A DNA stretch of 46,821 nt from an uncultured Eubacteriales bacterium (GCA_900545865.1 URAN01000019.1:1-46821), one strand, 5' to 3'; counted from the stretch's first letter, positions 5,051-36,933 are shown. Numbers and translations are program-made. The notes: generated from the sequence alone by a model not told the origin.

Positions 5051-5051
5051 A

Positions 5052-14744: not shown

Positions 14745-14754
14745 CCCTTATTTT

Positions 14755-16148: not shown

Positions 16149-16204
16149 ATACTCACCCCTTTCTATATAGGTAATATATATTTAATATTATATATTGTAT
16201 ATTT

Positions 16205-16247: not shown

Positions 16248-16289
16248 ATAATTATATGATTAGGTATTTGATAAAAGGAGCTGTATAGA

Positions 16290-18353: not shown

Positions 18354-18390
18354 AAGCATACCGAGGCGTTTAACCTTTGGTATGCTCTAA
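18354..18390 (-). terminator. Rho-independent terminator downstream of the 172-aa membrane protein gene
   Basis: AGCATACC...GGTATGCT 8-bp stem followed on the minus strand by TTTTCT. Confidence 0.45.
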
Positions 18391-18405
18391 CCATATGTAT
18401 TTATT

Positions 18406-18924
18406 TTAGTATTCTATACTTTTTTTCTTATCTTTAATTTTGTTAATCAACAGCCAAACCGCACCTATAAATATAACCATTACGGCTATATAAAACAAAT
18501 AGTATGAAATTGAAAAATTATATTTATTCGTAAAAATTCCACGGTCTTGAAAATCCCAGTTAAGCAATGCAAAAGTTCCTACTGTCAATACATCAAACAC
18601 TATAACCGCTATCGGCTTTTTTAAGACCGAAAAAAGTATATTTAGCAATGAGAATATTCCTATCGTTACCATAGCTATAGGAACAAAATATTTATAAAAT
18701 ATATTTGCTCCGTGGTAATAAATGTTTGCCATATCAAAAAGAGAAAGGTTCATTGCTTCCCTGTTAGTCATATTGATTTTTTCATAAAAAGGCGTGTTGG
18801 GAGAAATGTTTAGAATTTTTGCATATTCTTCCGTTGCACTCACATAAGGTATGAACAACGATATTATAATTGTCGCTATGCCGACAAGCAGTATTAACAT
18901 TGGGATATTTAATTTTTTATTCAT
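18406..18924 (-). CDS. Integral membrane protein (4 TM), hypothetical
   Basis: Hydrophobic helices (LILLVGIATIIISLFIPYV, VTIGIFSLLNILFSVL, YLFYIAVMVIFIGAVWLLI). Confidence 0.5.
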   Translation of the reverse strand: MNKKLNIPMLILLVGIATIIISLFIPYVSATEEYAKILNISPNTPFYEKINMTNREAMNLSLFDMANIYYHGANIFYKYFVPIAMVTIGIFSLLNILFSVLKKPIAVIVFDVLTVGTFALLNWDFQDRGIFTNKYNFSISYYLFYIAVMVIFIGAVWLLINKIKDKKKSIEY

Positions 18925-18938
18925 TGTGTTTCCTCCGC

Positions 18939-20123: not shown

Positions 20124-20245
20124 ACCCTCCGTATATTTAATATATACATACAGTATATATTAAATCAGTCTAAATGTCAAGTAAAACTATACTTTCGGTA
20201 TAGTTTCCGCTATGAAATACGTTGCAAAACAGGGAATATTTTATC

Positions 20246-20267
20246 TTGACCACAATTTTGACCACAA
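20246..20267. repeat. attR-like direct repeat
   Basis: 22-bp perfect match to 14378..14399. Confidence 0.8.
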
Positions 20268-20725: not shown

Positions 20726-21307
20726 TTATTCGGTATTGCGACTTGAGATTGCATTTCCGCAATACTCGCATTTGCCTGAGCTTCCGGCGCGGATCCTTGT
20801 TGTTCCGTTGCATTTTTCGCATACAACGTTGACAAAGCTTGTTTTGCTGTTTGCTCTGCCCGAGAGAAGCACGCATGGCAATCCCTGCTTTTGCAGTGTA
20901 CAATCTCGAAAGACGCCCTTTCCGAAAAGCCATTCAAGCTCGGAAAGCGCCTTATAGGACGGTTTTCCCATCTGCTTTGAAATCTCCTCAATCGTAACGG
21001 TGCCGTCTTGGTCGCACATAAATATTGAATCGTAACGGCGTGCAAGATTCGCTCTTATTCCGTTTTTTATGCCGTTTAACAAAAGGAGTGCGGACGGAAC
21101 AAGCATGACTATATTGGTAATCAGGTTATCACGAAGTTTTTCGTTATACCCCGTAACCCCCGAAATAATTCCGAACAGAAAAACCGCTGTGAAGAATCCG
21201 CCTATAATCATTTGTATGTGCTTCTTTAATGTAAGTCTTGCGATTGCCGCCGCTGAAATATACGTTCCGCCGCCGGAGAATAATTTTGTATTCGTCTTCA
21301 TTTTCAC
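20726..21307 (-). CDS. Membrane protein with C-terminal zinc ribbon (hypothetical)
   Basis: Two or three TM helices, then CEKCNGTTRIRAGSSGKCEYCGN. ATGA-coupled to the upstream gene. Preferred over the overlapping out-of-frame ORF 20587..21045. Confidence 0.5.
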   Translation of the reverse strand: MKMKTNTKLFSGGGTYISAAAIARLTLKKHIQMIIGGFFTAVFLFGIISGVTGYNEKLRDNLITNIVMLVPSALLLLNGIKNGIRANLARRYDSIFMCDQDGTVTIEEISKQMGKPSYKALSELEWLFGKGVFRDCTLQKQGLPCVLLSGRANSKTSFVNVVCEKCNGTTRIRAGSSGKCEYCGNAISSRNTE

Positions 21308-22152
21308 TGCCTCCGAAATATCATCATTCCCGCACCGATTACCGCAAGCAGTATACCGGCTATTATGCCGAAAATCGAGCCTCCGCGCACGCCTTTTTTG
21401 TTCTCCTCAGCAAATTCTTCCGCCGTCATAATTCCCTTAACGGTTGTAACCGCATCAATGTCATCGGCTTCTACCAGGTTACCCTCCTTTTGTACGCCGA
21501 CAATCGTATATTCGAGCGGATCGTCGGATGAAACGATACCGTAGGATACTTTTTGAGATCCGTCTCCCGTCGACGAGTACGTACCTGTTGATTTTTTCGG
21601 CAGCCAATTTTCTTTTGAAACGCAGTAGCTGCTTTCTCTTCCGCCCGAAAGCACCTTCCAGCCCGCATTGAGGCTCTTCTCGTCATATTGCTTAAATTCC
21701 GTGTTTCTTATAAGAGGATTGAGCAGTTTGCTCTCCACCTTAAACTCACCGAGCAGGGTAGGAGCGGCGAGCATGGTTGTTGTAAGTATTTCGGCATTTA
21801 TTCCGAAATTTGCCTTTTCACTGTAGTCGGTATTCTCCGGATGCCAATCCCACACTTTTTCATCACCGCTGCCGGTATCCTGTTTATAAGTCCAAACAGT
21901 TCTTTTCGCCGTTACTCCGGGAAGCTTAACACCCGTTATGGGATCCTGAAGCTGTTCTGCCGGTTTAAGAGTTCCTGAGACAACCACAAGTTTCCCTTCG
22001 TTTTCGGGGGTAAGCTTGCCGTCCTTAATCGTTGCCGCAGCTCTGATTTTCTCGTAACTCTGCGGTGCTGACACAAGAGCTTTTACAGCAAGCGAAGCAA
22101 AGAATATGCCTCCTATAATCAGTATAACGCCGATTATTTTTTTCATAGTCAT
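21304..22152 (-). CDS. Bitopic membrane protein (N- and C-terminal TM), hypothetical
   Basis: N-terminal TM IIGVILIIGGIFFASLAV and C-terminal TM IFGIIAGILLAVIGAGMMIF. Confidence 0.5.
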   Translation of the reverse strand: MTMKKIIGVILIIGGIFFASLAVKALVSAPQSYEKIRAAATIKDGKLTPENEGKLVVVSGTLKPAEQLQDPITGVKLPGVTAKRTVWTYKQDTGSGDEKVWDWHPENTDYSEKANFGINAEILTTTMLAAPTLLGEFKVESKLLNPLIRNTEFKQYDEKSLNAGWKVLSGGRESSYCVSKENWLPKKSTGTYSSTGDGSQKVSYGIVSSDDPLEYTIVGVQKEGNLVEADDIDAVTTVKGIMTAEEFAEENKKGVRGGSIFGIIAGILLAVIGAGMMIFRRQ

Positions 22153-22167
22153 TCCTCCATTCTGTGG

Positions 22168-23340
22168 CTATTCAAGCTTTTTTGCCTGATTTTGATACTC
22201 GTCCTGTATAAATTTTGAATTCTTATCGGTAAGAGCATTTACAACCTCGCCAAACGCCTCAAACTGCTCTTTTGTGCAATGCACCGCAACGGGTTTGCAG
22301 GCATATCCACGCGTCATACGTCCTAAATTTTCGTTTTTTACAAGTCCGAGCATGACTTCATAAAGCTCATCTGTATTGAAATAGGTTGCTTTTTCCTTCC
22401 ATGCGGCATAGTTCTTCTCGGATTTGTTTGTAAAGCTTGTCACAGCTGCCCATGCGGGAACTTTGTCACTGCCCGGTGTGGTTTTAAAGTAGTCTATCGT
22501 AGCCCTGTATGCCGCTTCGCTTGTATTTTCGTGCGACGGATAATCGTACCACAGCCAAACAAGTCCTCTTACGCCGCTTGAATGAAGGTCTGCGTCAGCC
22601 TCGTTTTTCAGCATTTCAGAGATAGGCGCAACCACTCTGTCATCACCGAGGAGACCGGCATACTCATACGCTGCTTTCCGAACATCGTTATCCGAATCCT
22701 TCATCAGCTTGATTTCCGCATCAACCGCACCATCAAGAGTTTTGTTCCATGTACTTCCGAGAGCAACCGCCGCCTGCCTTCTTACAACTGCGTTTTCATT
22801 CTTTGCCGCATCAAGCAGAAATTTGCCGATTTCTGCATCCTTGCCGCCTTCATTGCCAAGAGCTTTTACCGCACATTTAATAACATAAGGCTCTTTTTCG
22901 GTTTTCAGAATCTCCTTTGCCGCCGCTTTATGCGAATCACTTGCCCCGAAAAATGTGGCAATGTTTGAAAAAGCATAGCCTCTTACCTGCGGCGAATCGC
23001 TTTTCAGAAGCGGCTCAACAAATTCCTTTGCCCCGGGGAGTGTTGCCTTGTTGTCCTTAAGCTTTTTGATTGCTTTATCTGTTATATTTTCATCAAGCTC
23101 AAGCTTATCGTTGATTGTTGTATATGAATATGTGGAAGCAAGATTTACAAATTCGTCCAAGGTTATATTCTTTTCATCTTTGATAAACTCTTTTATCAGA
23201 TCGTCCTCTGTCATATTTGCGTAGTCAATCTTTTTAGCTCCCCCGGCTTGTTGTCCGCCGTTCCCGGTCTTGTCTCCTCCGCACGATGCAAGTGTGAATA
23301 TCATTCCGATTGTCAAAATCATTGCTAATAACTTTTTCAT
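22168..23340 (-). CDS. HEAT-repeat lipoprotein
   Basis: Lipobox LASCGG. Repeated VRxxAxxALG motifs (VRGYAFSNIA, VIKCAVKALG, VVRRQAAVALG, DVRKAAYEYAGLLG) typical of HEAT/PBS repeats. Confidence 0.55.
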   Translation of the reverse strand: MKKLLAMILTIGMIFTLASCGGDKTGNGGQQAGGAKKIDYANMTEDDLIKEFIKDEKNITLDEFVNLASTYSYTTINDKLELDENITDKAIKKLKDNKATLPGAKEFVEPLLKSDSPQVRGYAFSNIATFFGASDSHKAAAKEILKTEKEPYVIKCAVKALGNEGGKDAEIGKFLLDAAKNENAVVRRQAAVALGSTWNKTLDGAVDAEIKLMKDSDNDVRKAAYEYAGLLGDDRVVAPISEMLKNEADADLHSSGVRGLVWLWYDYPSHENTSEAAYRATIDYFKTTPGSDKVPAWAAVTSFTNKSEKNYAAWKEKATYFNTDELYEVMLGLVKNENLGRMTRGYACKPVAVHCTKEQFEAFGEVVNALTDKNSKFIQDEYQNQAKKLE

Positions 23341-23361
23341 AATATTGAATTCCTCCGTTTT

Positions 23362-24666
23362 TTATTGTTTATCATTATCATCAAATATGTCACCGCATTC
23401 AGGGCAGAATTTCGGCGGATTTTTAGGATCTTCCGGTTCCCAGCCGCACTTATCACATTTATAAAGCGGTGCGCCCGCAGGTTTCGGATTCCCGCAGTTT
23501 TGGCAGAATTTGCCCTTGTTTACCGTGCCACACGAACACGTCCAGCCGTCGGGCGATGCCTGCGGCTTTCCGCAATTCATGCAAAATTTGCCCGAATTTC
23601 CGGTCTGACCGCATTCACAGCTCCAGCCTGCCGTTTGAGGCTGCTGTTGCTGCTGACCCATCGCAAAAAGATTGCCTGCATTCATGCCGCCTGCGCTCTG
23701 CGCCATACTCATCCCGAAAAATCCGCCCATTGCACCCATTCCGCCTTCGTTTGCCGCAGCTGTTCTCATAGCGTCTGTCTGTCCGCCGACAATGCGCGCC
23801 GCCGCAATATTCGGGTTGGTTGTCATAATGTTTTCCTCCCACTCGGTAATTTTCTTTCTCTGATCCTCGGGGATAGATACACCGTTAATGCTTACGGTGA
23901 AAAGCTCGATTCCGCGCTTTTCCTTCCACTCGGCTTTAAGCTCCTCGGAAAGAGCCTTTGTAACCTCTTTTGTATGCGCCGGTATTTCGTAATACATTAT
24001 TTTCATTGCCGAAATCTGCGCAAATGCCGGCCTGAGAGCATCCAGAAGCTCACTCTTTAACATTTCGTCGATTTCCGAGCGGCTGTATACATATTCGACA
24101 TTACCGCTTACGTTCGTATAAAACATAACGGGATCGGCTATTTTATAGGAATACACGCCGTTACACCTTAAATCCACCGACAGCTTATAGTTCATAGACT
24201 CATCTATCGTTACCCTAAAAGGTACAGGTGAAGAAGTTCCGAATTTATTTCCGGTTATTTCCTTTGTGTTAAAATAATAAACCCTCTGATCCTTACCGGG
24301 TTCGCCGCCGAAAGTAAAACGCTTGCCTACCTGCGCAAAGCTTTGCTTAATGCTTTCGCCTAAGCTTCCACAGAAAATACTCGGTTCGGTGGAATTATCG
24401 TAGACAAATTCTCCTGCCTCGGCGCAAAATTCAACAATTTTGCCCGATTCCACGATAATCATGCTCTGCCCCTCATTTATTGAAATGATTGAACCGTTTG
24501 AAATAATGTTGTCGTCTCCCTTTTTGTTGGAGCTTCTTTTTCCCGCTCGTTTTTCGCCTTTTGCCACAAGTGTGTCGGCGTCCAAGCTTTCGCAGTAAAA
24601 AAATTCTCTCCACTGATCAGCTAAAACGCCGCCGAGCGCACCTGCCCCTGCTTTTAAAAGTCCCAT
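23362..24666 (-). CDS. SPFH/Band-7-like protein (YdjI-like) with triple C-terminal zinc-ribbon repeats
   Basis: N-terminal MGLLKAGAGALGGVLADQWREFFYC resembles the YdjI/SPFH family. The C-terminus has three tandem W/Y-x-C-x-CG...KFC-x-x-CG units. SPFH assignment is from motif memory. Confidence 0.55.
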   Translation of the reverse strand: MGLLKAGAGALGGVLADQWREFFYCESLDADTLVAKGEKRAGKRSSNKKGDDNIISNGSIISINEGQSMIIVESGKIVEFCAEAGEFVYDNSTEPSIFCGSLGESIKQSFAQVGKRFTFGGEPGKDQRVYYFNTKEITGNKFGTSSPVPFRVTIDESMNYKLSVDLRCNGVYSYKIADPVMFYTNVSGNVEYVYSRSEIDEMLKSELLDALRPAFAQISAMKIMYYEIPAHTKEVTKALSEELKAEWKEKRGIELFTVSINGVSIPEDQRKKITEWEENIMTTNPNIAAARIVGGQTDAMRTAAANEGGMGAMGGFFGMSMAQSAGGMNAGNLFAMGQQQQQPQTAGWSCECGQTGNSGKFCMNCGKPQASPDGWTCSCGTVNKGKFCQNCGNPKPAGAPLYKCDKCGWEPEDPKNPPKFCPECGDIFDDNDKQ

Positions 24667-24749
24667 AGTTCTGTTCTCCTCTCAATTATTTTATTTTTTA
24701 TACTCTGTTATATCCCATATATCGGGTGTACATATCAGCCTCACCTTAA

Positions 24750-25934
24750 TTACCCTTTCGGCAATTCTATCCTCATATCATGGCAGAGTATTCTGGAAAC
24801 AAGCGCTGCCGCTTCACTCCTCTTTACCTGCGAATCGGGATAATATGTCATATGCTCATCGCTGCCCACGGCAATCCCCTTATTGTAAAGGTCTAAAATT
24901 TCATAAGCGTGCGGCGTTGTATCGTAAACATCCGGAATGTCAGTAAGCGGAACATCGTTTATAAAACACCGTTCCATATCGCACCGTGAAAACAGATATG
25001 CCATCTGCGCACGAGTTGCGTTTGCGTTCCAGTCGAAAACAATGTAATCTTCAATGATTGCGTTGGCGTAGCAGTAGTCCACATAAACGTCATACCAGTT
25101 TTCGCCCAGCATCTGAAATTCCGATTTCTCGCCGTCATAACGCTTTTGATTATGAATAACCGCCGCAATCTTTGCCGCCTCGGCGCAGGTAAGACCTGCG
25201 TTCGGGTCAAATATCGTTTCGCTTTTGCCGTTTATTATACCGAAATTATATGCCGTTTGAACGTAAGCGTAATACCATGCGTCCTGTGATACATCGGAGA
25301 ACGGAAGAGGGTTTTCGTCAAGATATTTGCTTCCCTTAAAGCCGCAGTCCTCGCAGTATATCATGTTTTCACCGAAAATATCCTTTTCCGTCATACTCTC
25401 AACAACCGAAGTGTGCATAACTGAAAAACTAAAGTTCCCGTCACCCTTTGCATCGGATATTTTTTTGTGCATCGCATACTCATCTGCCGTGCACGGGATA
25501 TAAAACTGTATAAATCCGGTTCCGATAAACACATCAAAATCAAACGTTATTTCCTCTGAATTCAATGTAACCTCATTAAGATTTGCGCAGTTGGCAAAAG
25601 CGCGCTCACCGATATTTTTCACACTTGACGGAATATATGCGCTTTTGGCATTGCAGCCTTCAAATGCATTTGTGTTTATCAATTCAATTCCTTCGGCAAG
25701 GGATATGTATTCAATTCCTAAGTCAAAACAAGCCATAACGCCGATTTCATTGATTTTTGTTCCGTCTATTTCTGCCGGGAAAAAGGCAAATTCATCACCG
25801 TAATAAGCTGTAATTACTCCATCCTTTGTATATTCATACATACCGTCTGCTGATTTGAATGTTTCCCATTCCGCACAGACAACAGTGCTGCTTAAAATCA
25901 GCAGTGCTGCAAGCAATAATGATAGTTTTTTCAT
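24750..25934 (-). CDS. Cell-surface protein with BspA-type leucine-rich repeats and C-terminal SLH-like repeats
   Basis: Signal peptide. LRR_5-like repeats such as INTNAFEGCNAKSAYIPSSVKNIGERAFANC. C-terminal FSDVSQDAWYYAYV...GIINGKSETIFDPNAGLTCAEAA is an SLH pattern. Confidence 0.6.
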   Translation of the reverse strand: MKKLSLLLAALLILSSTVVCAEWETFKSADGMYEYTKDGVITAYYGDEFAFFPAEIDGTKINEIGVMACFDLGIEYISLAEGIELINTNAFEGCNAKSAYIPSSVKNIGERAFANCANLNEVTLNSEEITFDFDVFIGTGFIQFYIPCTADEYAMHKKISDAKGDGNFSFSVMHTSVVESMTEKDIFGENMIYCEDCGFKGSKYLDENPLPFSDVSQDAWYYAYVQTAYNFGIINGKSETIFDPNAGLTCAEAAKIAAVIHNQKRYDGEKSEFQMLGENWYDVYVDYCYANAIIEDYIVFDWNANATRAQMAYLFSRCDMERCFINDVPLTDIPDVYDTTPHAYEILDLYNKGIAVGSDEHMTYYPDSQVKRSEAAALVSRILCHDMRIELPKG

Positions 25935-25949
25935 GTTTTTCGCCTCCCA

Positions 25950-26828
25950 TTACTTTATTTTGGCTTCCGCATCGTCCGCACGTCTTGTGTAAACCGCCAT
26001 GCCGCCGGTCGCTGCATCATTCATAGCATTTATGCCTTCCTTCAGTTTTTCTTTGTCCGTCTCCGTTATAGCTTCCTCACCTTTTGTTGCAGCCTTAAAA
26101 GCCGTTCCGAATGCCGCCGCCATTCCAATCGCTGCCGCATCCTCTCTTTTTTCCGCCTTACTTCTGCCAAAGCCGAACAAACCTCTTTCATCATCGTGAA
26201 CGCCGAAAATATAATCAAACTTGCATTTTGCATTATGTGCATACTGCACGTCCGAACGATTGTTTTTGCTGAAACAGATTTTAAGTTCTTGCTTGATATA
26301 CGGATGAGGACGAAGACCTTTTTTGTTGTCTGTATTCACCTTGCTCATATTTCCGCCCAAAAGCTTGATTTTTAATCCGCATTCCTTAAATTCAGGATTT
26401 TTTCCCGGCTCGCTTGCCGGCGTTTCATCTATGTATTCCTCATAGCTTGCCACCTGATCGTAGCGGAAAAGCTCGTTCATCTTTCCTCTGCCCGTGTTGC
26501 TTCTGTGTTTAATCCGAAACATTCCCAAGTCATCGCAAAACTCAATGCCCATTTCCTTGAGCGACGAAGGGTATGTGTCTTTCTTTCCTTCTTTGGAATA
26601 GACCTCCTCAAAAAGTCTGTTCTGCCTTTTCATATATTCTATATGTCCCTTGATTTCATCCAATGTCAGCTCGCTCAGCCTAATGTACTTTGAACATAGA
26701 TTCCCGCAATCGTCACATAAAAATTCCTTGTTCTTTATTTTTGTGCGGTGCATCATGCCGCATTCCTTGCCGCATAACGCACAATTTTTTTTGCCGAAAA
26801 TGTTCTTGAAAAAATCACCGAGTCCCAT
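25950..26828 (-). CDS. Zinc-ribbon domain protein, hypothetical
   Basis: N-terminal CALCGKECG...CDDCGN zinc ribbon. C-terminal Ala/Gly-rich amphipathic tail. Confidence 0.5.
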   Translation of the reverse strand: MGLGDFFKNIFGKKNCALCGKECGMMHRTKIKNKEFLCDDCGNLCSKYIRLSELTLDEIKGHIEYMKRQNRLFEEVYSKEGKKDTYPSSLKEMGIEFCDDLGMFRIKHRSNTGRGKMNELFRYDQVASYEEYIDETPASEPGKNPEFKECGLKIKLLGGNMSKVNTDNKKGLRPHPYIKQELKICFSKNNRSDVQYAHNAKCKFDYIFGVHDDERGLFGFGRSKAEKREDAAAIGMAAAFGTAFKAATKGEEAITETDKEKLKEGINAMNDAATGGMAVYTRRADDAEAKIK

Positions 26829-26991
26829 AATTTTTTCCGGTATAATGTAATTGACTCATCTAACGGTCATTCGCATTATACCATTCTCCTTTCTATCAAC
26901 CTTTTATTCCGCGGTTGATTACGGTTTGGTTTATTGGTATTACATAAATAAGTAATGTGGATTTGTATATTTTTCTTCCTTAAAATTTTTA

Positions 26992-27768
26992 TTAAAAACT
27001 TCCGCCTCGTCCGCCGTGACTTCTGCCGGAAGACGATGTATGGCTGCCGGAATCCGATTTCGGTTTTTCCGTTTTTGTCACTGTACTGTAAAGGAATATA
27101 TCCCTTGAAAAATCAAGATTCATACTGTTCGGCTTCATATAATTTGCGGCATTGTCCTCTTTGACCGCCGTTTTCATTGCGCAGAGCTTTTTGTACATCA
27201 TAAAATACGCAAGAATAAGGGGAAGAAGAAGTGCCCCGGCAACCACACACAGGATATACTTCATGCTGTGCTGAGTTTTGTTGAACGGCTTACCCTCTGC
27301 TGCCATCTTCAAAAGTTCTTCCGTATGTTCGGCGTATGATTTGACCGCAGCATAATAGTTGTCTTTCTTCAAATACGGAACAATCTTTTTTTCCAAATAG
27401 GCAAGACCGTTTTCATTAAATATCGTTTCACCGCTGCCGCAGACTGAAAAATGATATTTTCTTTCATAGTCCGCTATGTAAAAAAGAATGCCGTCGCAGT
27501 TTTCACCGTAACCGTAGTCATTATAATCGTAAATGTCGTCTGCCGACGCTTGTGCGTCATAGGCAGATAATCTATCCTCTGAAACAAATACGATGTCAAA
27601 ATTATATTGTTCACGAATTTTATCAAGCCTTGCCGACAGCTCTTTATTTTGTTCCTCTGTCAGGTATCCGACCGAATCCGTAATCGTTGGATTGATAAAA
27701 TCCGCATATACGGTAATTGTCGATACAAAGCAGAGAAGGACAATCATGATTGTAACAAATCTTTTCAT
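26992..27768 (-). CDS. TPM-domain protein (YdjH/YgcG-like) with C-terminal TM and Gly-rich tail
   Basis: Signal peptide/TM, TPM-like core (LTEEQNKELSARLDKIREQYNFDIVFV), TM helix and SSGRSHGGRGGSF tail. Start at MKRF with a GGAGGAGG RBS. The track ORF extends to 27855. Confidence 0.65.
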   Translation of the reverse strand: MKRFVTIMIVLLCFVSTITVYADFINPTITDSVGYLTEEQNKELSARLDKIREQYNFDIVFVSEDRLSAYDAQASADDIYDYNDYGYGENCDGILFYIADYERKYHFSVCGSGETIFNENGLAYLEKKIVPYLKKDNYYAAVKSYAEHTEELLKMAAEGKPFNKTQHSMKYILCVVAGALLLPLILAYFMMYKKLCAMKTAVKEDNAANYMKPNSMNLDFSRDIFLYSTVTKTEKPKSDSGSHTSSSGRSHGGRGGSF

Positions 27769-27779
27769 TTGGCCTCCTC

Positions 27780-28859
27780 CTAATGCAGCAAGAAATATGC
27801 TATAACTGCAGATGCTATATAAGCAAAGCCGGCAATTTTCGCAAAGTATCTCCATTTTTTCCTTTTGTCAATCGGATATTCACCGACAACTTTGCCCGTC
27901 TGTCCGTTGACAGCAAACTTATATGTATTGTTCATATATTTAATATTGAGCATCCAAACCGGGAGAAGGGAATACCTTATTTTACCGCCTGAAAAGCTGA
28001 TTTTTGTACTTTCGGGAATCACCGCAGCGTAACCGCTCGTTGTCTCCTTAAATACCGAAACCGTTGAATTTTTTACACGTTCGTTCGCTCGCTCTATGCT
28101 TTCCTCTGCCGAAACATCATATTTATCCGCCATATACCCCGAAAGATATGCACCGTTAAACTCCACTGCATCATCATAACAAAAAGGTTCTACCGCCTCC
28201 ATATATGCGTCATCCGCTTTTTTTGAGCCGTCAACAGGAATGTTGGCAAAACCCACACTGCCGCTTCTGAAAAGTCTGTAATAATCTGTTTTGGTATAAT
28301 GATAATTGGAATCACTCCAACTTGTAACCCTTTGTGCACCGTAAGTTATTGCAGCACTACAGTCGCAGTCAAACATCCAAAAAGGCACATAAACGCCTGT
28401 CATTTCTTCTATCTTCTTTCTGACTTTAAACGTATCCGGCAGAAACGGTGCATTTTTGAAATCTGCCTCAAATACCTCCATTGCCGCTTTTTTATCTATC
28501 TTAAACGGAATAATATAGTCAGGCCGAAGGGTACCCTCAAACTGTCCCTTGATCACCGCTGCATCGCCACAGTATGGACAAACGGTTGACCCCATTGTAT
28601 CGTCACCGGTTATTTCCGCACCGCAGGAGGGGCAGGTATAGCTTGCGAGTTCAATCTCTCCGTCTGTTTCATAACTTCTCGGTTCGTAATGCTCCCAGTC
28701 ATATTTTGACTCTCCATGCATTTGAGATCCGACATCCTCGATTTGCCGCACAGCGTCAAGCTCAAAATCATTTCCACAGGAATCGCAGTGCAGCGACTCA
28801 TTCCGAAAAATCAGCGAATCACCGCAGCAAGGACACTTATAGCTTTGTACTGTTTCCAT
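27780..28859 (-). CDS. Membrane-anchored double zinc-ribbon protein (YdjG-like)
   Basis: YKCPCCGDS...CDSCGN and YTCPSCGAE...CPYCGD ribbons. C-terminal TM FAYIASAVIAYFLL. Start at METVQSY with an AGGAGAG RBS. 11-bp gap to the TPM gene. Confidence 0.55.
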   Translation of the reverse strand: METVQSYKCPCCGDSLIFRNESLHCDSCGNDFELDAVRQIEDVGSQMHGESKYDWEHYEPRSYETDGEIELASYTCPSCGAEITGDDTMGSTVCPYCGDAAVIKGQFEGTLRPDYIIPFKIDKKAAMEVFEADFKNAPFLPDTFKVRKKIEEMTGVYVPFWMFDCDCSAAITYGAQRVTSWSDSNYHYTKTDYYRLFRSGSVGFANIPVDGSKKADDAYMEAVEPFCYDDAVEFNGAYLSGYMADKYDVSAEESIERANERVKNSTVSVFKETTSGYAAVIPESTKISFSGGKIRYSLLPVWMLNIKYMNNTYKFAVNGQTGKVVGEYPIDKRKKWRYFAKIAGFAYIASAVIAYFLLH

Positions 28860-28930
28860 CGTTTCTCTCCTTTTTACCCGGCTGTTCCCGCCGCTCAAAA
28901 ACGAGCGGCGGGAACATTTGGACGTTTTAC

Positions 28931-29326
28931 TTATGCTGTCTCTTTATTCTTGGCCGCACCAATTATGTACAGAACCGGAATAACCAAGCCGGTAGCGTAG
29001 TTAAAGGCATTGAAATCGCTGCCAAGTACGTTTGAGATAACGTTTCCGGCTACGCTTAAGATTGCCACAATGATACCCATAACCAGGCAGGTTTGTGCCT
29101 TTTCGGGTTTATCGCAGTTTTTCACGCCCATAATTCCGGCAATCAGCTGAAACACTGCACTTGCCAGAACCAGCACGCTCGCAAGCATAAGACCAACGGC
29201 GCTTGTTTCAAGAACCGCTGCCAAAGCTCCCACTCCGATCATTGCAATAATTCCTCCGATAATACCGAACGCTGCGCCGATAATCATCAGAATCCCCGTG
29301 ACCTTCAAAAACTTTCTTCCTTTCAT
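28931..29326 (-). CDS. Small integral membrane protein (3-4 TM), hypothetical
   Basis: Gly/Ala/Ile-rich helices. Confidence 0.5.
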   Translation of the reverse strand: MKGRKFLKVTGILMIIGAAFGIIGGIIAMIGVGALAAVLETSAVGLMLASVLVLASAVFQLIAGIMGVKNCDKPEKAQTCLVMGIIVAILSVAGNVISNVLGSDFNAFNYATGLVIPVLYIIGAAKNKETA

Positions 29327-29388
29327 AATGAACCTCCTTAAAAAATTTTTTATTTATATCCACATTTTAAAAATGGATATTACAAGTG

Positions 29389-32300
29389 TTATTTTTCTAC
29401 CGTCACAACCTCACACATCGGCTGCATACTGCCGTTTTCGCAGTTCCAGAGCATTAGCTTGTATATGTATCCGTCACCGGAGGTTCCATATAAATAGTAA
29501 TCCTCCCGGTTAACATATTTTACCCGATAATCGACTAAAATTCCGTTTGCGTCATACTTCGCACTGTAAACCCTCGCACTGCTGCTCGGCGCAAAGCCGA
29601 TTACGGTATTAAGGTCTTTGTTGCAGCTGATAAATGCTGCATCCTTCGGCGCAATCAGCGCATACCACGCGTCCGTTGCATCGGCGTCGGACATGATAGT
29701 CGACAAGTCGGTGCTGTTTTTTGCTCCTACGACTTTCATGGGAGAATACTCGCTTTGCGTAAATGCCTGTGTAAATGCCTTAAAGCTTGTGCCGCTGTAA
29801 TTTCCCCAATAGATTTCCGTTATGCCGTAGGCAAGCATCGTTTTACCGTCAAACGCAGTTTTGCAGTCTCTTACGCTCAGCTTTTCGGCAAGGTTTTCAA
29901 TTTTCGCCGCTTTTATGCCCTTGTCGTACGTTATCTTGCCCGCGCCCTTGATTGTAAGTGTTCCGCTGCCGTAAAAAGAAACCTTGCCTCCGCACAGAAT
30001 ACCCACGGCATCTATAGTGTCCGCTTCTATTATACTGTCGCCTATAAGCTCTATATCAAGGTCGCCGTTTGCATAAATTCCGACAGATTCCGCCGTGGCG
30101 TAAATCGGATGCGTATCAATATGCGCATTGTTCAGCGTCAGCTTTGCGGGAGACATTGATGTTTCCGGAGTAAAGCTTACCGTACCGCCGAACAGTGTCT
30201 CGGCATCACCCTGTGTGACGTCTTTGCCCTCCACCGTTATTATAGGTTCGGCAAATACCGCATAAAGCGAAAGCCCCATAGGTACGAAAACCTTATCTCC
30301 CGGCAAATAATCCACCGTTTTGCCGCCTTTTTCAACCGTCCATCCCAAAAAGCTGTATCCGCTTTTTATCGGACGAACTTTTGGCAGAACTGCTTGATTG
30401 TACTTTTTCATCCGTATGGATTTATACGGCTGGCTGTCGACTTCCGCTTTATCAAACAGGAAAAGAACCGTGGTTTCCTGCATATCGCTTTTTGTAAACG
30501 AATTGACAGCAGACGGCTGATATCCACACTTGGCGCAGGTTTTGCGATACAGCCCGTCTACGGTGTCGGTTGCTTCTCTTAAAAGCTCATATTTGTAGAT
30601 GTGTTCTTCGTCCTTCTTGTACGTCACGGTATTTCCGTCCGCATCCTCGTAGCTGCAGCGGCTGCATATAAGGCTGTGGTTTGTACCGTCCTTTTGGGCA
30701 CACGAATCAAATTTATGTATTACAGAGTGGCTGACAAGGTTACCGTTTATCCCTTTGTTTACTTCTGTACCGTTTACCTTGACAACGCATCTGTATTTTT
30801 CGCTTCCGGGCGTCCTGTTTGTTACGATAAATGACGGCGTGTCGTAGCCGGCAAACATGCCGACGCCTACCCCATAATCAACAAGCTGTTTTATGCTGAC
30901 ATAATCCGAATCCTGTTTAAGCTGCCAGTCATATGTAACCGTTGCCCCCTCCGGCGCGCATACCTTAATGTAAAATGCTGTGCTTTCATTGCACTCCGTA
31001 ACAACCTTGTCTGTAAGGCTTTCGATAAAGGGCGCTTTTTCCGTTCGCCCGATATGCACGGGCAAAGCTTTACTTCCGCCGTCAGATGTCACCGTCAGCG
31101 TAAAGCTTTTTTCCTCCGTTTCCGTGGACGGGTAAGCGCCGATGATATAACGATTGTCTATGATTGAAAGCCCGTAAGCTGCAAATTCCGCATCGCCCGT
31201 CACCGTAAAGCTGTCGGCACAGCTTATATAATTTCTCAAATCAACATCGATGGAAGATCCCGAAACACCTGCCGGAATTTCGACAGGCTTTTTGTTATAT
31301 ACTTTAAACTCCGAAGCCTCCGCACAAAAATATTCGCGGCTCACGTATATGTCCTTGGAGGGCTTGGAAAGATGATTCTCCGCAGGGACATCGTTTATAT
31401 ACAACTTTGTTTCCCCCGTAAACCATGCATCACCCGTGGCTTTTGCATAGGCACCGTATTCGTATACGGTATTCTCGGTATATTCCTTCAATAAGTTGTA
31501 TTCGCCTTCTTCCGCAATCAGCGCATTTTGTGCCTCAACATCCGAAATCATAAACCCGTCTTCATTTTCATAAAGCTGCACTGCGGTATATTCCGATGTT
31601 CCGAGAGAATAAAAAACGGGTTTTCTGCCCGGCATCGGTTCAATATTGTAAAGTCGCAGCTCTTTTATTATCGGCTTCCAGTGTGCGTAGATTGTGGTAT
31701 TTTTGTTGTATACCCTGCCGCTGTCAACCTGCTCGCCGCCTTCGGACTCGGTATACCAGCCCTCGATATAAAACCCTTCTCTGTTGATAACGGTATGATC
31801 ATAAAACAAACTCATAATCGTTCCGTCAATCTGCGTCTTCATATCAAGTGTCGCGGCGCCGGAGGCTCCGACAAAGCTGCCGCCGTTTGCATCAAGCGTC
31901 ACCGTGTATGGATTCGGGCTTTTGATTGTGTATTCCAGCGTAACCTTCGGCCAATTCACGCCTACGGTGTTTTTTGTTATCTTACCCGGCGGCGCTCCGT
32001 CCGACAGCAGTATCTGCGTATTCCGACTCATGCCGAAGCCTTCCTCAAAATCAAACAAAATCGTCAGCGCACACCTGGTTGTGTTTTTGAAATTCTTTGC
32101 ATCCACATAGATTTTTTTAACGGGGTCATATACCATCCACTTAAGCTGCAATATGCTGTAGTTCACGCCGTCAGGCACCTTTATCGCCTGCGTCAGCTCC
32201 TCGACCGAACTGTTTGGTCCGGGCTGCTGCACCCCCATAAGCTCAAGCGAATCCAAATAATTCTTCTTTACTCCTTCGGAACACAGATTTTTTGTTTTTA

Positions 32301-32718
32301 TATACACATAACCGGCATAATAGTTTATGTTTTCATAGGGTAAAAGCTCATCGTCAATATAAAATTTGGTTTCACTGCTTGCAACATAATTTCCGTCCTT
32401 GATCGTCACTTTAAAATAGTAATAATACTCGGTGCCGCTGTCAAACGGGTCTATGTTTGAGCTCAGCTTTGCGCCGTCGCACGCCCTGTACCAGTTACCA
32501 TTGTCAATTTTTAATATCTCATCGGAACCGGGACAGGTTAATTTAACAGACTTTGCCATGACACCTTTCTTAATGCTTATTTCGCTCATTCCAACAAGTC
32601 TCACTTCCGGTATAACAGTCTGCGCCGCAAACGTTGTCTGCGGCAAAACACCCAAAAGCACCGCCATGTAAAGAAAAGCTGAAAACAGCCTGCTCCTTTT
32701 TCTTTTCATGTAATTCAT
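29389..32718 (-). CDS. Large secreted cell-surface protein (1109 aa) with Listeria-Bacteroides repeat (Flg_new) domains
   Basis: Signal peptide AVLLGVLPQTTFA. Repeats TVTLDANGGSF...EGFYIEGWYTESEGGEQVDSGRVYNKNTTIYAHW and VLPKVRPIKSGYSFLGWTVEKGGKTVDYLPGDKVFVP. Confidence 0.7.
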   Translation of the reverse strand: MNYMKRKRSRLFSAFLYMAVLLGVLPQTTFAAQTVIPEVRLVGMSEISIKKGVMAKSVKLTCPGSDEILKIDNGNWYRACDGAKLSSNIDPFDSGTEYYYYFKVTIKDGNYVASSETKFYIDDELLPYENINYYAGYVYIKTKNLCSEGVKKNYLDSLELMGVQQPGPNSSVEELTQAIKVPDGVNYSILQLKWMVYDPVKKIYVDAKNFKNTTRCALTILFDFEEGFGMSRNTQILLSDGAPPGKITKNTVGVNWPKVTLEYTIKSPNPYTVTLDANGGSFVGASGAATLDMKTQIDGTIMSLFYDHTVINREGFYIEGWYTESEGGEQVDSGRVYNKNTTIYAHWKPIIKELRLYNIEPMPGRKPVFYSLGTSEYTAVQLYENEDGFMISDVEAQNALIAEEGEYNLLKEYTENTVYEYGAYAKATGDAWFTGETKLYINDVPAENHLSKPSKDIYVSREYFCAEASEFKVYNKKPVEIPAGVSGSSIDVDLRNYISCADSFTVTGDAEFAAYGLSIIDNRYIIGAYPSTETEEKSFTLTVTSDGGSKALPVHIGRTEKAPFIESLTDKVVTECNESTAFYIKVCAPEGATVTYDWQLKQDSDYVSIKQLVDYGVGVGMFAGYDTPSFIVTNRTPGSEKYRCVVKVNGTEVNKGINGNLVSHSVIHKFDSCAQKDGTNHSLICSRCSYEDADGNTVTYKKDEEHIYKYELLREATDTVDGLYRKTCAKCGYQPSAVNSFTKSDMQETTVLFLFDKAEVDSQPYKSIRMKKYNQAVLPKVRPIKSGYSFLGWTVEKGGKTVDYLPGDKVFVPMGLSLYAVFAEPIITVEGKDVTQGDAETLFGGTVSFTPETSMSPAKLTLNNAHIDTHPIYATAESVGIYANGDLDIELIGDSIIEADTIDAVGILCGGKVSFYGSGTLTIKGAGKITYDKGIKAAKIENLAEKLSVRDCKTAFDGKTMLAYGITEIYWGNYSGTSFKAFTQAFTQSEYSPMKVVGAKNSTDLSTIMSDADATDAWYALIAPKDAAFISCNKDLNTVIGFAPSSSARVYSAKYDANGILVDYRVKYVNREDYYLYGTSGDGYIYKLMLWNCENGSMQPMCEVVTVEK

Positions 32719-32813
32719 CTCCTTTTTCTTTCAATGTGTGGCAATCGCCGTAAGCGGCAAAAGCGTCATCAACATAATAAATACCATACACAGCGACAAA
32801 ACTTTCTTCATAA

Positions 32814-33101
32814 TTAAATCGCCTCTCTTTCATTATTTTGTTTCGCTCCGCACATGGGGCAATACTCCGCATCATCAGGGAGAACATTTTCGCATTTGGT
32901 ACAACGACGATGCTTTACTTTGTAAATATCAAAAACTGTTTCCTCCGGCAATTTTGTCTGACAAACTTTGCAAAACTTGTTCTTTGCAGCCTGTACATTC
33001 CCGCAGCACCGGCATATTTTACAGCTTTTCATTTTTTTCGTGCCGAAGCCGAAATGCGCCAAAATATCTTTTCTTGACGGTCTATATCTTGTCATTTCCA
33101 T
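32814..33101 (-). CDS. Small double zinc-ribbon protein (95 aa)
   Basis: CKICRCCGN...CKVCQ and CTKCEN...CPMCG ribbons. Start at MEMTRYR overlaps the upstream TGA as TGATG. Confidence 0.5.
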   Translation of the reverse strand: MEMTRYRPSRKDILAHFGFGTKKMKSCKICRCCGNVQAAKNKFCKVCQTKLPEETVFDIYKVKHRRCTKCENVLPDDAEYCPMCGAKQNNEREAI

Positions 33102-33466
33102 CAGCTCCCCCCATATAATACTTTTTTGCCGCATACAGAGCAGATTATATCGCCGTTAATTACTTTTGCTCCGCAGTGCTTGCAGTACCTTGCTTCTTCT
33201 TCGAGCGGAGCACAGTTTACACACATAAGCATATCCGGATTATATACAATCGAATCGACCCATCTGCCGCACAAGTGGCATAAATTAAAATTTTTCTTGC
33301 CCTCCGCTTCCCATGCCGCCGAAAGCTCTGCCTCGAAATCGTCTGCATAATACGTTCCTGTGGTACAGACAAGCATTCCCGACAATTCGCAGAAAAAACT
33401 GTAACGGTTTCCGCCCTGTGACGGAATAATTTTGTATGCAGCCGTTTTATGCTTCTCATTTATCAT
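33101..33466 (-). CDS. Small double zinc-ribbon protein (121 aa); first gene of the cluster
   Basis: CHLCGRW...CVNCAP and CKHCGAK...CSVCGKK ribbons. Confidence 0.5.
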   Translation of the reverse strand: MINEKHKTAAYKIIPSQGGNRYSFFCELSGMLVCTTGTYYADDFEAELSAAWEAEGKKNFNLCHLCGRWVDSIVYNPDMLMCVNCAPLEEEARYCKHCGAKVINGDIICSVCGKKVLYGGS

Positions 33467-33829: not shown

Positions 33830-33912
33830 CCCCATACTTTTTGCCAAAAGTATAGGATGAATTTCAAAAAAATTTAAGTTTTTTCGAAAAAGTAGGGGAA
33901 AAAGTATAGGAT
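33830..33912. promoter_or_regulatory. Array of four AAAAGTA(K)(R)GGA motif copies in the leader of the SBP/LuxR operon (one inverted, three direct)
   Basis: Inverted copy 33830-33841 forms the palindrome ATACTTTTtgccAAAAGTAT with the direct copy at 33846-33857. Further copies at 33888-33899 (AAAAGTAGGGGA) and 33899-33910 (AAAAGTATAGGA). Confidence 0.5.
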
Positions 33913-33995: not shown

Positions 33996-35318
33996 ATGAA
34001 ATCAGCAAGAAAATTATTTTTGCTTTTACTCATTTTCAGCATATCAATATGCTGCCTTTCCGGCTGCAAAAAATCGGAACTTGATAAAAACAAACCCGTT
34101 ACGCTTACAATGTGGCACGTTTACGGAGAACAAGCGGATTCGCCGATGAATCGGCTTATTGACGAATTTAACGAGACAGTTGGCGTGGAAAAAGGCATTA
34201 TTATCAATGTCACGGCAATGTCCAACGCCTCCAAAATAGGCGAAAAACTGCTTGACGCACATAATAAGATTCCCGGTTCCGCCGAAATGCCCGACCTTTT
34301 CTTTGCACACAAAAGCAATGTGCTGGAGCTTGGAGCGGATTGTTTACTTGACTGGAACGAATATTTTTCCGAAAAAGAGCTTTCGGCATACATTCCGGAA
34401 TTTTTGGAGGACGGCACGGCAGCCGGAAAGCTGTCCGTGTTCCCGGTGTCTAAATCCACGCATCTTTTATTCATTGCCGGAGGTCAGTTTGAACGCTTTT
34501 CAGCCGATACGGGCGTAACATATGAAGCGCTGTCCACCTGGGACGGGTTTTTCGATGCTGCCGCGAAATATTATGACTGGTCGGGCGGAAAACCGTTCTG
34601 CGCTCTTGATTATCCGCTGCGAGCCATTGAGCTTGCGGCTACGGAAAGCGGCGCAGGAAATATTTTTGCCGACAACGGATTCTATGACCCGTCAAACGTG
34701 ATTTTTAAGCAAACCTTCATTAAATTTGCGGATTCGCTTGCAAAAGGGCATATTATGCTTTCAAATCTCTATTCAAACACACAGGTGATGACAGGCGAGG
34801 TCGTAGCCGGCATAGGCTCGTCCGCCGCAATTCTTTACTATAATGATACCGTGACATATGAGGACGGAACGAGTGAGCCGATGGATCCGGAGATACTGCC
34901 TCTGCCCGCAGAAAACGGAAAAAAGCCGTATATCACGCAAGCCGGAGTCGGTCTTTGCGCATATAAAACAACAAGTCAAAAAGCAGAAGCGTCAGCAATT
35001 TTTGCCAAATGGCTTACCGAGCCGGAGAGAAATCTTGAGTTCGTATGCCAAACAGGTTATATGCCGGTTACAAACGGTGCGTTTGAAAAAATAGACGACT
35101 GCCGTTTCAAGACAGCCGATTATGAAAAACTCTATGCAGCACTAAAAAAAGTTAAGGAAAGCTCGGAGGTTTTGTCAGAACAGCAAAGTCCCGAATATTA
35201 CAGTAAAGTTTACGCATTTTACGATTATTTAAGAAACGAACAGAAACAATTTATACTAAGCAACACGCCGCCCGAAGCACTTGCCGAGGGACTTTGGCAA
35301 AAGCTCTGCGAAAAATAG
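33996..35318 (+). CDS. Extracellular solute-binding lipoprotein (ABC-type family-1-like SBP), orphan of permease genes
   Basis: Lipobox CLSGC and PVTLTMWHVYGEQ, a typical SBP_bac_1 N-terminus. No adjacent permease or ATPase genes. Confidence 0.75.
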   Translation: MKSARKLFLLLLIFSISICCLSGCKKSELDKNKPVTLTMWHVYGEQADSPMNRLIDEFNETVGVEKGIIINVTAMSNASKIGEKLLDAHNKIPGSAEMPDLFFAHKSNVLELGADCLLDWNEYFSEKELSAYIPEFLEDGTAAGKLSVFPVSKSTHLLFIAGGQFERFSADTGVTYEALSTWDGFFDAAAKYYDWSGGKPFCALDYPLRAIELAATESGAGNIFADNGFYDPSNVIFKQTFIKFADSLAKGHIMLSNLYSNTQVMTGEVVAGIGSSAAILYYNDTVTYEDGTSEPMDPEILPLPAENGKKPYITQAGVGLCAYKTTSQKAEASAIFAKWLTEPERNLEFVCQTGYMPVTNGAFEKIDDCRFKTADYEKLYAALKKVKESSEVLSEQQSPEYYSKVYAFYDYLRNEQKQFILSNTPPEALAEGLWQKLCEK

Positions 35319-35331: not shown

Positions 35332-36933
35332 ATGCAAATATCGGTAAGAAACAAAAAACAATCTATGCAAAAAAAGCTGTTTGGATATATGTTTATCCTG
35401 GCTATCGTTTTATTGCTTATATTTGTGGCTTTTCTTTTCCTGTTCGGACGTTTTTCGACAACCGAGGATAAAATATCGGATATATTAAGCCTTCAGATTG
35501 AGTTTTTCGACCGTGAGATGACGTCTTACTACAATGATATTACCTTGCGCGGCGCACAGCTTTCCGAAAAAGCCACGCAGCTTACCGAGCAATATCTTAA
35601 TTCGGAAAATACAGATTTTGGCGACGTTCAAAACTCTTCTTTGCATATCAACGCTCTTGAGGAACGCTATATTGATTTATTGAAGAACGAGCTTTTAAAG
35701 GCAAGCTGTTCCGGCGCTTTTATCCTGATTAATGCATCTCAAACCGGCGCAAGCGGTTCAAAATCAGGCGTGTATCTTAATCAGGATCTGTTCGGAACAA
35801 CGGACAAGGAAACAATGCTTCTTTACAGGGGAAATGTGAAGGCTGCGATAAACAAAGGCATTATGCCTCACCGTAAATGGCATTTGGAATTTGACACCGA
35901 GGTATTCCCGAATTTTGAAGAAGTTTTTTCGGATACCTCTGAGCCGATTGAAAAAACCGCTCATATCTGTAATATTATAACGCTCCCCGGGACATCGGAG
36001 CGCGTTATGCTTATTGCTCTTCCTATCAGAGGCAACGGCGGCCGTGTTTACGGCATCTGCGGCTTTGAAGTGAACGAAAGCGTTTTTAAGTCCGCACACG
36101 CACAGCCGTCCACACTTCCGCACATAACCTGTATATTCTCCCGCTCGGACGATAAAGAAATCAATATAAAAGAGGGATTAAGCTGCGGAGCAAAAAACGG
36201 ATATTTTCTTGAACCTAAGGAATCCTTCAAAATCAAGCCGCTGAAAAAGGGTCTTGTCGCTTTAAAAAATGAATACGGCGCATATATCGGCATGACGAGA
36301 AGCACAACTCTTTATTCCGAAAACACGCCTTATTCGATCACGGTTATGATGCCGTATGCGGATTATTCCGGGCTGGAAACGAAAAACACCGTGCAGCTTA
36401 TACTCATAATTCTGATTTTGGGGTTTGCTGTTTTAAGCCTTAGCCTGTATTTTTCAAAACGATTTATCCTTCCGATAAAAAAATCGCTTGACAAAATAAA
36501 ACAATCCGAAAAGACATATTCCGACGAAAGTCAAAGCGGTATTATGGAAATTGACGACCTTTTTGCATTTCTTGCCGGAAAGGATAACGAATATCAAAAA
36601 ATCTTCGACGAACATTCCGAAAAAACCGAAAGTCTGCAAAGCGAAATTGAACGTATCAGAACCGAAAACAAGCGTCTGATGAAAGAGCATAAAAACATCA
36701 TTGCACAGGATGATTATGATCATTTCTGCTCGGGTATACGCAGCCTTACTCCCAAGGAGAGAACAATATTTGACCTCTATCTGGAGGGAAAAACCGTTCC
36801 TGAAATTTTACAGATTGCAGAAGTTAAAGAGAGTACGCTTAAATACCATAACGGCAATATTTACAGCAAGCTCGGAGTTTCCTCAAAAAAGCAGCTTCTT
36901 AATTTTGCGGCACTGTATGCACGGGAAAAGTAA
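35332..36933 (+). CDS. Two-pass transmembrane LuxR/GerE-family one-component regulator with ~300-aa extracytoplasmic sensor domain
   Basis: TM1 LFGYMFILAIVLLLIFVAFLFLFG and TM2 VQLILIILILGFAVLSLSLYF. Cytoplasmic coiled-coil, then LTPKERTIFDLYLEGKTVPEILQIAEVKESTLKYHNGNIYSKLGVSSKKQLL (LuxR HTH). Start at MQISV with a GGGGGA RBS. The track ORF begins at 35281. Confidence 0.7.
   Translation: MQISVRNKKQSMQKKLFGYMFILAIVLLLIFVAFLFLFGRFSTTEDKISDILSLQIEFFDREMTSYYNDITLRGAQLSEKATQLTEQYLNSENTDFGDVQNSSLHINALEERYIDLLKNELLKASCSGAFILINASQTGASGSKSGVYLNQDLFGTTDKETMLLYRGNVKAAINKGIMPHRKWHLEFDTEVFPNFEEVFSDTSEPIEKTAHICNIITLPGTSERVMLIALPIRGNGGRVYGICGFEVNESVFKSAHAQPSTLPHITCIFSRSDDKEINIKEGLSCGAKNGYFLEPKESFKIKPLKKGLVALKNEYGAYIGMTRSTTLYSENTPYSITVMMPYADYSGLETKNTVQLILIILILGFAVLSLSLYFSKRFILPIKKSLDKIKQSEKTYSDESQSGIMEIDDLFAFLAGKDNEYQKIFDEHSEKTESLQSEIERIRTENKRLMKEHKNIIAQDDYDHFCSGIRSLTPKERTIFDLYLEGKTVPEILQIAEVKESTLKYHNGNIYSKLGVSSKKQLLNFAALYAREK

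Follow-up and report, generated by a model that had tools for sequence, protein, structure and literature searches.

The locus described here raises the question of whether the YdjG, YdjH and YdjI proteins, which are encoded together with PspA in Bacillus subtilis, can form a module of their own, and into what kind of system such a module may be built. It lies on a stretch of 46,821 nt from an uncultured Eubacteriales bacterium (GCA_900545865.1 URAN01000019.1:1-46821; this whole stretch is referred to as the window), in which a first-pass annotation had delimited a unidirectional envelope cluster at positions 20726–33466 and described it as a PspA-less zinc-ribbon/TPM/SPFH module. The cluster consists of 12 genes, numbered g01 to g12 in the order of transcription and all located on the minus strand (Table 1), among which g05, g06 and g09 code for proteins resembling YdjG, YdjH and YdjI, respectively. 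This assignment is well supported at the sequence level, the trio is conserved as a linked module across 80 or more species of Clostridia, and it does not need a linked pspA gene. Taken as a whole, the locus is probably best explained as a YdjGHI-type core that was elaborated in a Clostridia lineage, with a scaffold role and under the control of a solute-binding protein (SBP) and a GerE-type regulator.

The ORFs (open reading frames) of the first-pass annotation are indeed present on the minus strand, and the three core proteins fit the published descriptions of their proposed counterparts. YdjG consists of two zinc ribbons, an alpha/beta domain and a transmembrane (TM) segment, YdjH of a TPM domain, a TM segment and a low-complexity tail, and YdjI of a TM-less band-7 domain, a stretch of low complexity and a C-terminal zinc ribbon (PMC11237479, PMC8581546). 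The same three architectures are found in g05, g06 and g09. The g05 product (359 aa) carries four CxxC pairs corresponding to two zinc ribbons, followed by a conserved middle region of about 230 aa and a TM segment at residues 340–358. All Pfam matches to the zinc ribbons stayed under the cut-off, and the CxxC cysteines are invariant among homologues. Because the TM segment is C-terminal, we predict g05 to be a tail-anchored cytoplasmic protein. The middle domain matched no Pfam family, and an NTF2-like (YpeB-related) assignment of the corresponding domain of YdjG comes from PMC11237479 alone. An AlphaFold2 model of g05 calculated from a 13-sequence alignment was poor (mean predicted local distance difference test score, pLDDT, of 53.2) and indicated a mixed alpha/beta secondary structure. 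The g05 family is large, with 6876 homologues in a 90%-identity collection and 6375 clusters at 50% identity.

The profile searches also bore out the TPM and SPFH assignments of the other two proteins. The g06 product matched TPM_phosphatase with 82.5 bits (cut-off 22.1) and contains an N-terminal signal peptide or TM segment, a second TM segment at residues 172–190 and a Gly-rich tail ending in GGRGGSF. The g09 product matched Band_7_1 with 63.8 bits (cut-off 24), compared with 28.3 bits for the classical Band_7 family, lacks TM segments and has CxxC pairs at residues 362–424. The terminal peptides are similar as well: the N-terminus of g05, METVQSYKCPCC, can be compared with MIISYKCPNC of YdjG (common pattern SYKCPxC), and the C-terminus of g06 with the SRGSF end of YdjH (common GSF), both B. 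subtilis peptides being deduced from primers (PMC8581546). Among the Bacilli, Enterococcus contains full-length homologues of g05 (E 5e-46) and g09 (E 1e-73), and g09 is 35.6% identical over its full length to an SPFH protein of Enterococcus gallinarum encoded beside a YdjG-like gene. Sequence searches of the PDB with g05, g06, g07 and g09 returned generic zinc-ribbon matches only, or nothing. The N-termini of g09 (MGLLKAGAG) and g07 (MGLGDFFKNIFGKK) both start with MGL and a short amphipathic stretch, which may resemble the membrane-binding N-terminal helix of PspA and Vipp1 (MGIFSRF or MGLFDRL); a model of g07 predicts a helix at residues 3–11.

The synteny of the trio was analyzed in a scan of GTDB species genomes, which yielded 80 Clostridia loci with 65–96% identity to g05. 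Loci of about 20 kb each were compared by tblastn and by clustering their ORFs into families (F numbers below), and the g05 ORF is contained in 76 of them. In 66 of these 76 loci, g06 directly follows g05, and in 29 a g09 gene is located downstream of the g05-g06 pair, 13 of them showing the strict order g05-g06-g09. One locus (L087) contains the trio alone as a three-gene operon flanked by unrelated genes on the opposite strand. In the window, g05 and g06 are separated by 11 nt, and g09 follows on the same strand after 2.3 kb that contain no terminator.

As claimed previously, the cluster contains no gene of the PspA/IM30 type. No match to PF04012 (PspA_IM30) was obtained among the ORFs of the window, and jackhmmer searches of every six-frame ORF in the window and in 86 loci, with PspA, Vipp1 and LiaH as probes, found nothing within about 10 kb. 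When checked against PF04012, the E. coli PspA probe scored 166.5 bits and was thereby validated. A PF04012 gene in or beside the operon, the criterion for a Psp system, was found neither in the window nor in the loci probed. For relatives outside the Clostridia, we ran tblastn searches against plasmids and chromids and inspected five records. In each of them, from Enterococcus gallinarum, Vibrio, Comamonas, Paracoccus and Tsukamurella, a full-length g05 relative adjoins an SPFH gene, and no annotated pspA is present within 5–6 kb of the pair in these five genera from three phyla. Absence of a linked pspA is thus common for YdjGHI-type modules, and its coupling to the module in B. subtilis looks like a special case. 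As 86 loci and five further genera are likewise devoid of a neighboring pspA, the label "PspA-less" does not distinguish this cluster, although it had been put forward as its notable trait.

The closest described system is the pspA-ydjGHI operon of B. subtilis, which belongs to the sigma-W regulon (Scholz et al. 2021, PMC8581546; Ravi et al. 2024, PMC11237479). Both loci have the gene for the G component before that for the H component and the I component downstream. They differ in that pspA is part of the operon in B. subtilis, that g09 carries three zinc ribbons instead of the single one of YdjI and lies two genes away from g06, and that the cluster has further conserved partners, among them a DUF4428-PH protein, two small zinc-ribbon proteins and a TMEM43-like pair, together with exported proteins of the SLH, lipoprotein and HEAT kinds. 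Moreover, the neighboring regulator is a membrane-bound GerE/LuxR protein with an SBP, and there is no known sigma-W promoter. The operons of the five other genera, which are uncharacterized, code for a YdjG-like protein with 23–27% identity to g05 over at least 90% of the query and an adjoining SPFH protein of the Band_7_1 type. In contrast to the cluster, they start with the SPFH gene and lack the DUF4428, small zinc-ribbon and exported additions. The E. gallinarum operon (PML87_RS12925-12935) has the order SPFH, YdjG-like, TPM and thus shares the TPM gene with the cluster, whereas Vibrio coralliilyticus (G3U99_RS25850/25845), Paracoccus, Comamonas and Tsukamurella contain the SPFH/YdjG-like pair only.

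In classical SPFH/NfeD pairs (stomatin, flotillin or YqiK with NfeD) and in HflK/C, an SPFH scaffold is combined with an adjacent, dedicated membrane partner, and the same is true here. Different from those systems, g09 belongs to the Band_7_1 subtype and has no membrane anchor of its own, so that it would rely on the zinc-ribbon and TPM partners, and no NfeD domain was matched by Pfam in any of the 12 cluster proteins. Work on the YdjGHI proteins has been confined to B. subtilis, where they were treated solely as accessories of PspA. Because the YdjG-like family is large, almost always encoded together with an SPFH gene and never with pspA among the loci examined, an overlooked PspA-independent role is suggested.

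Gene prediction on six metagenome contigs from this species agrees on the count of 12 genes. Thirteen genes had been counted previously; the likely thirteenth, an ORF at 32570–32887, overlaps both neighbors, was called on one contig only and has no match in Pfam. The genes are co-oriented and closely spaced, as described before, with intergenic gaps of 5, 95, 62, 71, 11, 163, 15, 83, 21 and 15 nt in the order of transcription and a final 4-nt overlap, and no terminator-like hairpins were found in the minus-strand gaps of the cluster. Because about 41 of the 45 genes of the window share this strand and its GC skew is negative over the entire length, co-orientation by itself says little about linkage, and the real evidence lies in the short gaps and the conserved synteny. 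A search of the whole window against Rfam matched no RNA family, so we see no riboswitch or leader; a tRNA scan found none, and a search against NCBIfam gave no informative match.

Table 1. Genes of the cluster and divergent regulatory features, with positions in the window.
Feature	Position	Strand	Description
g01	33101..33466	-	First gene; cytoplasmic double zinc-ribbon protein of 121 aa (4 CxxC); DZR 28.3 bits; no TM
g02	32814..33095	-	93-aa double zinc ribbon; DZR 35.6 bits, Zn_Ribbon_1 27.5 bits
g03	29389..32718	-	1109-aa secreted protein with Listeria-Bacteroides repeats; Flg_new 58.3 bits
g04	28931..29326	-	131-aa multi-TM protein; hydrophobic segments
g05, YdjG-like	27780..28859	-	N-terminal pair of zinc ribbons, then conserved alpha/beta domain and TM anchor at the C-terminus
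g06, YdjH-like	26992..27768	-	Signal/TM, external TPM domain, second TM, Gly-rich tail in the cytoplasm (predicted topology)
g07	25950..26828	-	Cytoplasmic; DUF4428 zinc ribbon followed by PH-like beta domain and, at the C-terminus, helical bundle
g08	24750..25934	-	Secreted BspA-type LRR protein with SLH wall-binding domain; LRR_5 52.3 bits, SLH 47.9 bits
g09, YdjI-like	23362..24666	-	Soluble SPFH protein (Band_7_1), low-complexity linker, three C-terminal zinc ribbons
g10	22168..23340	-	HEAT-repeat lipoprotein; HEAT_2 62.8 bits; lipobox LASC
g11	21304..22152	-	TMEM43-family protein, TM - ectodomain - TM; TMEM43 21.7 bits (cut-off 23.3)
g12	20726..21307	-	2-TM protein with cytoplasmic C-terminal zinc ribbon; coupled to g11
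Solute-binding protein (family F12)	33996..35318	+	SBP_bac_8 63.2 bits; outside cluster coordinates, divergent
GerE/LuxR-type regulator (family F11)	35332..36933	+	GerE 42.4 bits; membrane-anchored, two hydrophobic segments; divergent
Candidate operator	33831..33910	.	Palindrome CCCATACTTTT-TGCC-AAAAGTATAGG (33831-33856) and half-sites (33888-33910)

Apart from the core, cytoplasmic zinc-ribbon proteins recur around the trio. In about 14 other species, the g01/g02 pair (45–56% identity) immediately precedes the YdjG-like gene, and the g02 product has 93 aa on five contigs or 106 aa if translation starts at 33134. In 13 further species the position of g01/g02 is filled by family F14. With 23% identity to g01 and an E-value of 0.003 in a tiny database, F14 was rejected as a homologue and is treated as a weak analogue. 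For g07, we found 526 homologues, and it accompanies the trio in 28 loci and in two distant loci with shuffled gene order. Its AlphaFold2 model is confident (pLDDT 84.8, predicted template modelling score 0.80) and comprises a zinc ribbon and a long helix, followed by a beta domain with a PH-like core and a helical bundle. In homologues of the SNIPE nuclease, DUF4428 and PH domains replace the TM anchors, and g07 may by analogy be located at the membrane periphery. The distant locus L096 (10890–13143) shows the order Band_7_1, DUF4428, 363 aa, 363 aa and TPM, and of its two tandem 363-aa genes, only the second could be verified as YdjG-like (43% identity to g05).

The g04 product has no match in Pfam, and its gene immediately precedes g05 both in near relatives and in Ructibacterium (69% identity). 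In the near relatives, a 392-aa protein of family F21 (Cu_amine_oxidN1 and beta-helix) is encoded between g04 and g05; it is absent from the window (28860–28930). The slot of g03 is variable, with g03 itself present in the closest relatives only and the large surface proteins F24 and F31 encoded there elsewhere. F31 (L020, 2065–6039, also in L016 and L021) has about 1320 aa, an N-terminal TM segment and dozens of CxxC motifs. SLH proteins (g08 or F7) recur between the TPM and SPFH genes across loci, and the HEAT lipoprotein g10 recurs in three loci (L026, L080 and L089). In 22 loci, the SPFH gene is immediately preceded by a gene for a secreted protein of about 180 aa (F5), which is likewise missing in the window (24667–24749). 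The g11-g12 pair is kept at 80–87% identity in Ructibacterium and an Acetivibrio species and also occurs in L080; orthologues of g11 from five species matched TMEM43 with 23.6–30.5 bits, which is above the cut-off.

The LRR/SLH protein, the 1109-aa repeat protein and the HEAT lipoprotein are thus what the first-pass annotation had taken them for, as judged from their domain matches and the lipobox. Its further view of a system attached to a cell-surface apparatus holds in part. Between g06 and g09, 44 of 65 inserts are exported (signal peptide or lipobox) compared to 15 of 181 flanking genes, and 14 of 65 are cytoplasmic zinc-ribbon proteins compared to 8 of 181, where the loci are interrelated and the counts therefore not independent. 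The insert families themselves vary: besides SLH proteins and the HEAT lipoprotein, they include acidic lipoproteins and a DUF3298 lipoprotein, among others. The association with exported proteins is a recurrent one, whereas an obligatory surface apparatus is contradicted by the bare trio of L087, because of which we regard the surface proteins as optional, lineage-variable additions. As partners of the trio, the DUF4428 protein, g01/g02 and the GerE/SBP pair, which the first-pass annotation had overlooked, show better conservation than the LRR/SLH, Flg_new and HEAT proteins. The Clostridia elaboration of the trio is recurring and undescribed: a search of the literature on DUF4428, or on SPFH, TPM domain and zinc ribbon in combination, found no description of the extended cluster.

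Divergently to the cluster, the window codes for an SBP and a membrane-anchored GerE/LuxR-type protein. Among 47 loci whose upstream sequence extends over 4 kb or more, 25 have a GerE-type regulator beside the module, represented by three types: F11 (about 540 aa, membrane-bound, with an SBP_bac_8 partner), F4 (a HisKA_7TM-GerE fusion) and F38 (a GerE response regulator). Members of F12, the SBP family, adjoin the module in 13 loci, and the small helix-turn-helix proteins F16 and F18 often accompany the SBP/GerE genes. From its position, the F11 protein is likely the regulator of the cluster. The 530-bp divergent region contains a palindrome with additional half-sites just upstream of a minus-strand promoter-like sequence near 33805 (GGGACA-16-TATAAT), and we consider these boxes a candidate LuxR-type operator. 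Three of the five motif matches of the window lie within 80 bp, compared to an expectation of about 1.1 matches for all of the window. Repeated CCYATACYTTT boxes are likewise aligned upstream of the module in four further species (L008, 3230–3310; L020, 1042–1121; L025, 9637–9707; L033, 412–497), one of which has the other regulator type, and 17 of the 27 motif matches in 982 kb of loci fall into these module-upstream intergenic regions. A k-mer enrichment analysis of the upstream regions of 64 loci gave A/T-rich words only, which indicates that the CCYATACTTTT box is lineage-restricted and not family-wide.

A mechanism of the system may be outlined from what is known of B. subtilis, where YdjG and YdjH are needed for the membrane localization of YdjI, and where loss of YdjG/YdjH disturbs the cell shape and delocalizes the peptidoglycan-synthesis machinery (PMC8581546). 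According to the predicted topologies, g05 would be tail-anchored with its two zinc ribbons facing the cytoplasm, g06 would expose its TPM domain on the outside and its Gly-rich tail on the inside, and g09 would be soluble. By analogy, g05 and g06 would then serve as a membrane receptor that brings g09 to the inner face of the membrane, where g09 may oligomerize to a scaffold organizing or stabilizing the membrane and affecting nearby envelope processes and cell-wall synthesis. The gene context suggests g07, g01 and g02 as cytoplasmic adaptors, g11/g12 and the TPM ectodomain as possible connections to the outer face, and the presumably co-transcribed exported proteins g03, g08 and g10 as potential clients or outer components. 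Judging from its conserved position, the divergent membrane GerE/LuxR regulator with its SBP probably controls the cluster via the CCYATACTTTT boxes. In the previously suggested membrane-integrity or remodelling system, the terms "integrity or remodelling" express an analogy and not a result.

Several points weigh against this account. Every functional step proposed for g01–g12 is an analogy to one organism, and the homology to B. subtilis YdjG, YdjH and YdjI is deduced from architecture, synteny, two terminal peptides and Pfam families. The g05 model is too poor for a fold search of the putatively NTF2-like middle domain. The loci compared are phylogenetically related, so that their counts overstate the number of independent events, and the box motif occurs in five species only. 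In the window itself, two genes (g07 and g08) stand between g06 and g09, and the largest gap, the 163 nt before g07, contains an extended -10-like sequence (TGGTATAAT at 26877–26885, minus strand), because of which an internal promoter for g07–g12, or sub-operons, are possible.

The trio could also be a membrane receptor for a PspA/IM30 protein encoded at another locus, exactly as in B. subtilis, where membrane recruitment of PspA depends on YdjI, YdjG and YdjH (PMC8581546). We consider such a dependence on a distant PspA somewhat unlikely: the window and the surroundings of the 86 loci contain no PspA, and the SPFH/YdjG-like pair occurs without an annotated pspA neighbor in further phyla, which points to a function of the trio of its own. 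In the most far-reaching reading, the YdjG-like/SPFH pair, with the TPM protein added in Firmicutes, would be an ancient and autonomous membrane-scaffold machine with PspA as just one lineage-specific client. In gut Clostridia, this machine would have become part of a larger and so far undescribed envelope system, in which an SPFH platform with zinc-ribbon and PH adaptors is physically coupled to exported SLH, lipoprotein and TMEM43-like parts via the TPM, TMEM43-like and TM-zinc-ribbon proteins and is switched on by a ligand-sensing SBP and the membrane LuxR-type regulator. We regard this extended version as speculative and on the whole doubtful.

A different view treats the cluster as a mosaic, in which only g05-g06, possibly with g09, form a functional unit and the other genes are unrelated insertions at a permissive site, linked by nothing but the shared leading strand. 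The inserts indeed differ between lineages (g03 versus F24/F31, g08 versus F7, and F13, F15, F17 and F5), F5 and F21 are absent from the window, 13 species have no insert at all, the strand bias extends over the whole window, and a mobile element is located directly beside the cluster. The insertions are not random, however, as they are shifted towards exported and zinc-ribbon proteins relative to the flanks, and g07 remains associated with the TPM and SPFH genes in rearranged loci as well. The recurrence of g01/g02 and of the GerE regulators, as well as the short gaps without terminators, also speak against a mosaic, which appears unlikely to us. An anti-phage defence or abortive-infection module on an SPFH scaffold is highly improbable. 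It could be derived from the Vibrio SPFH/YdjG-like pair, which adjoins genes for TIR-domain and TRAFs-binding-domain proteins, and from the DUF4428 domain at the N-terminus of some SNIPE defence nucleases. Against this, a search of ten of the 12 proteins (all but g03 and g08) against PADLOC-DB 2.0 gave no meaningful match, but only generic HEAT-repeat matches for g10 and two matches at chance level (E of about 0.008), and no nuclease, NTPase or toxin domain was found in the cluster with Pfam. Furthermore, the module is stably conserved in many species and not patchily distributed, and its other contexts are of the housekeeping type. We rejected the defence reading for its lack of a noteworthy PADLOC match and of an effector domain.

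The YdjGHI-type core with its Clostridia additions provides leads on the targets and the control of the scaffold in the form of named partner genes, a candidate regulator and a candidate operator, and Ructibacterium gallinarum (DSM 107454, NZ_JADCKB01) is available as a cultured carrier. The advance is modest, representing a new context for a known module and not a new mechanism.

Downstream of g12, the window contains the mobile element mentioned above (14378–20267), which is bordered by a perfect 22-bp direct repeat (TTGACCACAATTTTGACCACAA at 14378–14399 and 20246–20267). It codes for a tyrosine integrase (14755–15963), a DUF6076 protein, an HTH_3 repressor-like protein and a DUF6591 protein, and its GC content is about 33% compared to about 42% in the surrounding sequence. 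It is absent from two contigs of the same species (L001 and L005), on which an HU gene directly follows g12. A second tyrosine recombinase gene (9677–10594, minus strand; Phage_integrase 98.3 bits) lies between a polysaccharide biosynthesis cluster and genes for AhpC, ferredoxin and Fur. The polysaccharide cluster (119–9037, minus strand) codes for glycosyltransferases of the GT1, GT2 and GT4 types, an initiating sugar transferase and a Wzy-like polymerase, and includes a gene for a polysaccharide pyruvyl transferase (4037–5050, minus strand). Pyruvylated cell-wall polymers serve as anchors of SLH proteins, with which the presence of a pyruvyl transferase fits.

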